Below are positions 138 through 973 of a stretch of DNA of 64,000 nt, one piece after another. The notes under the pieces were generated by a model. It was not told where the DNA came from. It was given only the letters and a program-made list of their open reading frames with translations, and did not search any database. The stretch comes from Parachlamydiales bacterium (lineage in GTDB: Bacteria; Chlamydiota; Chlamydiia; Chlamydiales; Rhabdochlamydiaceae). Where the stretch lies: assembly GCA_963705295.1 (NCBI GenBank), contig OY970065.1, positions 1,984,001 through 2,048,000 of the forward strand. The letters run 5' to 3'. Made by a program: the position numbers and the translations under genes. Position 1 is the first letter of the stretch. Every line of letters begins with the position of its first letter.

Positions 138-973
138 GGAGAACAAGATACGCATGTAATCAATCCTATCTTATCCTGCTTATCGTGCCGCCGAAGGCGA
201 TCCTGTATATCTTGTTATCCCCCTGAAATTTGCACAAAGATCAAGGAGAACAAGATACGCACGATCGCACCAAGTAAACTGGGTGCGGCAGGATATACAG
301 GATGATCAATCCTATCTTATCCTGCTTATCATGCCGCCGAAGGCGATCCTGCATATCTTGTTATCCCCATGAAATTTGCACAAAGATCAAGGAGAACAAG
401 ATACGCACGATCGCACCAAGTAAACTGGGTGCGGCAAGATATACAGGATGATCAATCCTATCTTATCCTGCTTATCATGCCGCCGAAGGCGATCCTGCAT
501 ATCTTGTTATCCCCCTGAAATTTGCACAAAGATCAAGGAGAACAAGATACGCACGATCGCACCAAGTAAACTGGGTGCGGCAAGATATACAGGATGATCA
601 ATCCTATCTTATCCTGCTTATCATGCCGCCGAAGGCGATCCTGCATATCTTGTTATCCCCCTGAAATTTGCACAAAGATCAAGGAGAACAAGATACGCAC
701 GATCGCACCAAGTAAACTGGGTGCGGCAAGATATACAGGATGATCAATCCTATCTTATCCTGCTTATCGTGCCGCCGAAGGCGATCCTGCATATCTTGTT
801 ATCCCCCTGAAATTTGCACAAAGATCAAGGAGAACAAGATACGCACGATCGCACCAAGTAAACTGGGTGCGGCAAGATATACAGGATGATCAATCCTATC
901 TTATCCTGCTTATCGTGCCGCCGAAGGCGATCCTGCATATCTTGTTATCCCCCTGAAATTTGCACAAAGATCA
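138..973. repeat. Tandem array of a 146-bp palindromic unit (1 internally deleted + 5 full copies)
   Basis: GGAGAACAAGATACGCA starts at 138, 245, 391, 537, 683, 829 (146-bp period from 245). Each unit is a ~122-bp imperfect inverted repeat plus a 24-bp linker. Only a few SNPs differ between copies. Confidence 0.97.

Follow-up and report, generated by a model that had tools for sequence, protein, structure and literature searches.

The array and its surroundings

The window analysed here is the whole 64,000-nucleotide stretch of DNA, taken from a 2.13 Mb genome that is assembled as one contig and is 94.7% complete. At positions 138 to 973 there is a tandem array, which starts 46 bp past the stop of a conserved gene that, from its motifs, we take to be LOG-like. 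TRF gives the array a period of 146 bp, 5.6 copies, 99% matches and 0% indels. A sequence-only reading of this DNA had described five full 146-bp units, a shorter first unit and a constant 24-bp linker, and all of this was borne out (Table 1). Each unit is made up of an inverted pair of approximately 50-bp arms and 24 bp of probable chromosomal flank. There are four variable sites, which lie in ordered blocks along the units. The same reading had noted ATCATG in units 1 to 3 and ATCGTG in units 0, 4 and 5; the split is as described, and we found three more changes that are private to one unit, two of them in unit 1 and one in unit 0. Units 2 and 3 are identical, as are units 4 and 5 over the unit. 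A CRISPR array is ruled out because the linker is constant, with no unique spacers, and there is no match to Cas1 in the genome, in agreement with the initial description of an array lacking spacers and cas genes. A tRNA search at the array found none.

Table 1. Features of the array and related sites, in window coordinates
Feature	Position	Strand	Remarks
Unit 0	138..244		107 bp (net −39 bp); left arm largely deleted, right arm intact, linker
Unit 1	245..390		Two private changes; left arm has the genome-wide consensus base at one box
Unit 2	391..536		Reference unit; identical to unit 3
Left arm of unit 2	391..449	−	Hairpin between two pairs of ATCnTG boxes (minus-strand reading)
Long-loop arm hairpin of unit 2 (side hairpin of the sequence-only reading)	412..433	−	Compensatory C-G to A-T change relative to the family consensus
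Inner spacer of unit 2	450..464		15 bp; position of the GxxExxY gene in full cassettes
Right arm of unit 2	465..512	+	Two boxes, GAA mini-hairpin (481–491), two boxes
Linker of unit 2	513..536		24 bp; probably the original right-hand chromosomal flank, copied with the element; the last copy continues into unique sequence at 974
Unit 3	537..682		
Unit 4	683..828		
Unit 5	829..973		23 of 24 linker bases (final base absent)
Sigma-70-type consensus match	974..1001	+	10/12; before an ORF of 138–141 aa with no NCBIfam match; not evidence of function
Solo doublet of the array's family	58156..58268		Same orientation, GAA loop in both arms; overlaps the stop of the upstream gene

The unit folds strongly on both strands, with z-scores for the full unit of −6 to −8.8 relative to shuffles. 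All four stems that had been named for a four-way structure are present (outer stem, 18 of 21 pairs; side hairpin, 8 of 9; inner stem, 13 of 16; and mini-hairpin, 4 pairs). The fold of lowest energy, however, is a three-way junction in which the GAA mini-hairpin is open, and the four-way form lies 3–11 kcal/mol above it (−26.9 versus −30.1 for the plus strand as DNA and −48.1 versus −53.8 as RNA). Pairing between the arms of adjacent units, over the linker, is as good as pairing inside one unit.

The array had also been said to end exactly at the −35 box of the next gene. A −35/−10 match does begin at 974, but a promoter scan gave two such sites where 3.2 would be expected by chance. Together with the −35 match, the last linker makes up a short inverted pair (TTGCA, 10 bp, TGCAA; 951–979), which is consistent with the linker being part of the next gene's own upstream region.

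The region between the LOG-like gene and a sugar-nucleotidyltransferase gene (93–1770) is a turnover hotspot, the content of which varies among 16 relatives from the same genus. In two of these, G011 and G016, the hotspot is empty and the next conserved gene follows directly. The element was absent from the 200 bp behind the upstream gene in all 16, so the array is lineage-specific.

A dispersed family of arm doublets

A search for other genomic copies found 18 further elements outside the array, giving approximately 19 loci in all. The 45 arms that could be parsed comprise 11 in the array, those of 16 parsed doublets and two single arms of degenerate doublets. Each arm has a hairpin with a pair of ATCnTG boxes, spaced 9 bp apart, before it and a second pair of boxes after it. 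Arms may face inward, as in the array unit, with a spacer of 14–16 bp in all seven of the other parsed doublets of this orientation, or outward, as at the junction between units, with a spacer of 3–32 bp in nine. Positions 1, 2, 3 and 5 of the box are invariant in 140 of 140 boxes and position 4 is variable in 34; the count covers 35 arms, leaving out one degenerate arm and all array units but one, and the search patterns tolerated four to five substitutions anywhere.

Within a doublet the arms differ from each other as much as arms taken from different loci do (5.31 versus 5.30 mismatches, p=0.55), and 85 differences are confined to one arm of a doublet while nine are shared. The long stems thus follow from the inversion and are not kept up by pairing, and the boxes have the look of protein sites. 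Within this genome the long arm-to-arm stems do not covary, which leaves the earlier suggestion of a multimeric structured RNA without support. A protein-binding platform, the other function that had been proposed, is plausible as far as the boxes are concerned, but nothing indicates that six copies do what one does not.

The arm hairpin is present in every parsed arm except one degenerate arm. In the long-loop arms its stem has at least six pairs in 13 of 14 cases and there are two compensatory changes, one of which is in the array. The short loops are GNA in 209 of 214 distinct contexts (GAA, 189; GCA, 13; GTA, 6; GGA, 1; other, 5), where the contexts are related to each other and GAA was the seed of the searches. 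GNA triloops are described as the only triloops that give an exceptionally stable DNA mini-hairpin, the RNA counterpart being much less stable (PMC13037366), and this DNA-stable loop type is a second point against structured RNA. Judged by its conservation, the small arm hairpin is probably a DNA-type mini-hairpin, the stem of which is kept by compensatory changes. We also considered reading the minus-strand loop as an RNA UNCG tetraloop. The N varies as it does in UNCG, yet there is one closing pair in that register compared with four to five in the triloop register, and the reading was rejected.

Two observations point the other way. Non-GAA loops are common to both arms in four of 16 doublets against 0.8 expected, although the loop classes were set after the data had been seen. 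Additionally, the arms are homogenised in one of five metagenome groups, where 12 doublets gave 5.5 mismatches against 8.1 (0 of 5000 shuffles); neither covariation nor homogenisation of arms was found in the other four. Taken together, the shared loops and the homogenised group indicate that strand exchange between arms does occur. Long loops are common to distant loci, showing that the gene-less copies descend from each other.

No fixed target-site duplication was found. The longest word shared by the two flanks of a locus was 5.1 against 4.5 across loci for the seven inward doublets and 4.1 against 4.3 for the nine outward ones, with one 7-bp candidate. No empty site was found at base resolution among the relatives examined, and viral contigs gave no exact match to the arm core.

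Three GxxExxY genes, each with its own repeat family

There are three PF13366 matches in the genome and each lies beside its own repeat family. Gene A (498.6–499.0 kb) belongs to TIGR04256 (135 bits against a cut-off of 35); its end is 2 bp from a doublet of the array's family and it has no left arm. Two other box families, with approximately 11 and 10 loci respectively, lie on both sides of gene B (1,224.7–1,225.1 kb) and of gene C, which has an internal deletion. Both a RAYT/Y1-HUH transposase gene and a GxxExxY nuclease gene had been proposed as candidates to be flanked by the element. The second was found and is the partner of the element. For the first, there is no match to the RAYT model NF047646 in the genome, and the one Y1 fragment is broken by a stop and lies more than 100 kb from any family copy. 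DDE_Tnp_1 also had no match in the genome.

The model of the gene A protein (pLDDT 93.8) has a PD-(D/E)XK core, and its structural matches are PD-(D/E)XK enzymes. The closest are Cas4 and lambda-type exonucleases, with Z of 8.2 or less (Cas4 SSO0001: Z 8.2, rmsd 3.3, 100 residues aligned); the Holliday-junction resolvase Hjc scores lower, with Z 6.5 and rmsd 3.3 over 85 residues. In an alignment of 71 rows the catalytic-type residues D73 and E83 are conserved at 90% or more and K85 is invariant. A sequence search of solved structures with the partner protein gave nothing below E 0.3.

Several further observations concern the repeat families. A doublet of the second (CTCGGTG-box) family lies in the window at approximately 52040–52137. 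Most doublets of family B have a GAA mini-hairpin beside one arm, as family A has between its boxes. The loci of family A avoid the region from 840 to 1,810 kb, which as the largest gap spans 45.5% of the circle (18 loci, p=0.0004, post hoc), and lie towards the GC-skew minimum (p=0.003, post hoc); family B mostly fills this gap. Clustering of each family around its own gene was not significant (p 0.13, 0.06 and 0.76). Degenerate box doublets without a hairpin are found at G000:C1:2065549-2065640, 1850190-1850330 and 2082856-2082898. There are also nested doublets, in which the arms of one box family lie inside those of another (G000:C1:1878101-1878230 and 1693600-1693740; L196, L228, L230, L234 and L244), and arms that have two or three different mini-hairpins between successive boxes (L233, L208, L236, L247, L251 and L249).

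Cassettes and their deletion series in other genomes

The same inward-facing arms bracket intact A-clade genes in six genomes (G048, G014, G052, G160, G213 and G293) and broken genes in G055 and G046. In the closest cassettes the arms often overlap the first and last codons of the gene. At 80 genome loci of the protein clade, drawn from many phyla, box pairs are present upstream in 60, downstream in 47 and on both sides in 43, compared with 26 and 15 of 1023 distant control windows; boxes in the opposite orientation are present upstream at 14 of the 80 and downstream at 28. In a tree of 25 chlamydial proteins (25 of 31 loci, six having been dropped as short or broken) the box motif is confined to one clade with 100/100 support, where it marks five of the six rows, and is absent from the 19 remaining rows.

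Of 300 other genomes in the phylum, 12 gave a hairpin-bearing arm. A clade-A gene (at least 50% identity) is present in five of these 12 and in 26 of the other 288 (Fisher p=0.004, with kin that are not independent); it was not found in the remaining seven, among them G148, which has nine arm matches. The exact hairpin-arm pattern is missing from 26 of the 31 gene-bearing genomes, and with the patterns used both flanking arms were recovered at just nine of 24 chlamydial gene loci.

Metagenome searches matched 101 loci, 80 of them with flanks, and nine of these 80 have gene sequence. Five loci that share one contig-name prefix have 396, 232, 189, 129 and 103 bp between the arms, and the shorter ones keep both gene ends. 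Other sequence is sometimes present between the arms. From these comparisons, each unit of the array is very probably a gene-less derivative of a cassette of approximately 500 bp in which a GxxExxY nuclease gene lies between two inverted arms.

Genome G046 has approximately 60 GxxExxY copies (L062-L077), mostly with identical deletions and representing three protein clades. There are 62 matches to an IS transposase gene in the same genome and many of the cassettes lie beside or inside it. We have therefore set aside these copies as proof of mobility, since they are confounded by the adjoining transposase.

Origin of the tandem amplification

The segment that is repeated in the array consists of the element and 23–24 bp of right flank, which runs on into unique sequence after the last copy. 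The junction shares one base with the ends of the segment, suggesting that the first duplication did not use homology.

Other tandem duplications are found at related loci. At 118.4 kb (G000:C1:118350-118924, L290) a 287-bp segment comprising a doublet, a promoter-like site and the start of a small ORF is present twice, with the stretch between the arms running in opposite directions in the two copies. At L185 the end of a gene and an arm are duplicated (191 bp, 2.2 copies). In G046 there are tandem arrays with units of 337–543 bp and 1.9–3.5 copies at four of the six loci scanned, which were chosen for their spacing. Finally, at G000:C1:1313917-1314358, there are three identical copies of an unrelated hairpin-rich 143-bp unit at the 3' end of a gene that was identified by eye as a tRNA. 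Each opens with a 13-bp copy of the tRNA end, and there are two weak partial matches elsewhere. This unrelated unit has also been tripled, so tandem amplification does not need the GxxExxY nuclease.

In summary, the array is real in the assembly and is a lineage-specific tandem amplification of a gene-less GxxExxY cassette. It is most likely a by-product and not a dedicated multimeric device. The overall interpretation offered by the sequence-only reading is thus partly supported: the locally amplified REPIN/MITE-like element stands, given the 18 further doublets, their patchy presence in relatives and the GxxExxY partner.

Comparison with known repeat systems

The closest resemblance is to REPINs and RAYTs. 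In Pseudomonas fluorescens, ordered REPIN clusters are described as tandem near-identical copies that include the flanks, the largest having four REPINs and one REP over more than 700 bp, and three groups of REPINs are each reported to lie beside one of three RAYTs (PMC3116915; Bertels & Rainey, 2011). Here too there are two inverted short repeats at a characteristic distance, extragenic and dispersed, and each arm carries a short palindrome, the hairpin. The flank-carrying tandem copies are also alike, and the three repeat families beside three GxxExxY genes correspond to the three RAYTs described there. In contrast, the partner in our system is a GxxExxY protein of PD-(D/E)XK fold and not a Y1-HUH RAYT, the arms are rows of direct-repeat boxes with a 9-bp period and an inserted hairpin, the doublet derives from a gene cassette by internal deletion, and there are approximately 19 loci and not hundreds. 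No RAYT gene is flanked by the repeat, so the element is not a member of the REPIN/RAYT group. By analogy, the system behind the array is a variant of the REP/REPIN kind with a putative nuclease partner.

REP dimers are described in both head-head and tail-tail arrangement, with clusters reiterated in tandem together with flanking DNA; REPtrons and TIRtrons are described as repeat-specific gene cassettes, and the TIRs that bound the latter are said to form dispersed families as well (PMC3733652; Di Nocera, 2013). As far as that account goes, both doublet orientations, the flank-carrying tandems and the repeat-bounded gene cassettes are found here too. However, the consensus arm has neither a GTAG nor a CGTC end tag and there is no tyrosine transposase.

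MITEs have terminal inverted repeats and arise from insertion sequences by internal deletion. The likeness to IS-derived MITEs lies in the terminal inverted repeats, which are common to the gene-carrying form, and in the internal deletion series from a form that looks autonomous. The differences are that no fixed target-site duplication and no DDE_Tnp_1 transposase were found, that the ends are ragged, and that the partner belongs to TIGR04256 and is not a known transposase.

Rows of short direct repeats (7–9 bp) that are paired on opposite strands between genes have been described in Geobacter metallireducens as 'predicted global regulator binding sites' (PMC2700814). The arrangement is similar to that of the arms; the legends of that paper, by which the two were compared, give other consensus motifs, read as regulator sites, and make no link with a nuclease.

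The PDDEXK_3 or GxxExxY family (PF13366, TIGR04256), to which the partner gene belongs, is catalogued as having unknown function and multiple horizontal transfers, and its entry as given in PMC3424549 includes neither flanking repeats nor a role in mobile elements. Our literature search, in which subscription journals were poorly covered, found nothing that links GxxExxY/PDDEXK_3 proteins to repeats or PD-(D/E)XK proteins to REPs, and no matching title on chlamydial repeats.

Proposed mechanism and alternatives

The following scheme would account for the array. The ATCnTG boxes, 9 bp apart, would most likely be the sites that the cognate nuclease clade recognises. To judge from its conservation, the small hairpin that separates the box pairs would form when the DNA is extruded or single-stranded. 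The intact gene at 498.6–499.0 kb would supply the nuclease in trans, and the enzyme would most likely nick or cut at the arms, in or close to the hairpin. The doublet could then be copied to new intergenic sites by host repair or by replication restart, as has been proposed for REPINs and RAYT. One such event would have duplicated the element and its 23–24 bp of right flank at the array locus, and ordinary unequal recombination or slippage would have added further copies, leaving blocks of identical neighbours. We regard this full sequence of events (reading of the boxes, cutting, copying by repair, and an array that arises by illegitimate duplication and then host recombination) as probable on balance; mobilisation by the GxxExxY nuclease is the step that we infer.

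Alternatively, a host protein or some other mobile enzyme could recognise the arms, with GxxExxY genes as mere cargo and the doublets spread by host recombination or by a transposase that has been lost. The cassettes of G046 do ride inside an IS element, there is a broken Y1 fragment in the genome, seven of the 12 arm-bearing genomes gave no clade-A gene, and the arms at times enclose other sequence. We nevertheless consider this unlikely. The box motif tracks the nuclease clade across families and phyla, the arms of the closest cassettes overlap the first and last gene codons, and the genome has neither a RAYT nor a DDE_Tnp_1 match, while the Y1 fragment is distant from every family copy.

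It is less probable still that the doublets are domesticated regulators at 3' ends or near promoters (terminators, mRNA stabilisers or structured RNA) and that the array is a selected multimer which tunes the flanking genes. By crude gene calls, 14 of the 19 loci are within 17 bp of a predicted stop codon, but the genome is 92% coding and, with so little intergenic space, such nearness is partly expected. The array is placed between a stop and a promoter-like site and both strands fold strongly, but there is no Rfam match in the window and none of the 16 same-genus relatives has the element behind the upstream gene. The homogenised arms of one metagenome group and the non-GAA loops shared within doublets would suit such a role, whereas arm covariation is absent in this genome and in the other four groups.

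It is very improbable that the copy number arose from a single or double hairpin-rich element through an artefact of assembly or consensus: units 2/3 and 4/5 are identical and there is another perfect triplication at 1,313.9 kb, but four variable sites in ordered blocks and the separate deletion in unit 0 call for four or more real units that differ from one another, and comparable tandem cassettes occur in other assemblies.

Returning to the nuclease scheme, its wider form is that GxxExxY proteins are unrecognised mobilising enzymes. They would be PD-(D/E)XK nucleases of approximately 125 residues that recognise boxes specific to their clade, next to a hairpin of single-stranded DNA, and bring about the copying of their own cassette and of gene-less doublets. 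This would be a second REP/RAYT-like system, independent in origin of HUH chemistry, with flank-carrying tandem arrays and inversions between the arms as its footprints and the array described here as a ready-made multi-site substrate. We put this generalisation forward tentatively, as a possibility that falls somewhat short of an even chance.

The tandem array itself is a by-product of a known type and matters mainly as a footprint and a substrate. There are many dispersed bacterial palindromes for which no mobilising enzyme is known. If it is true that GxxExxY nucleases mobilise palindromes, a common family of unknown function would gain a role. A sequence-specific nuclease of very small size would also become open to direct tests, along with its natural variants of specificity, of which this genome has three.
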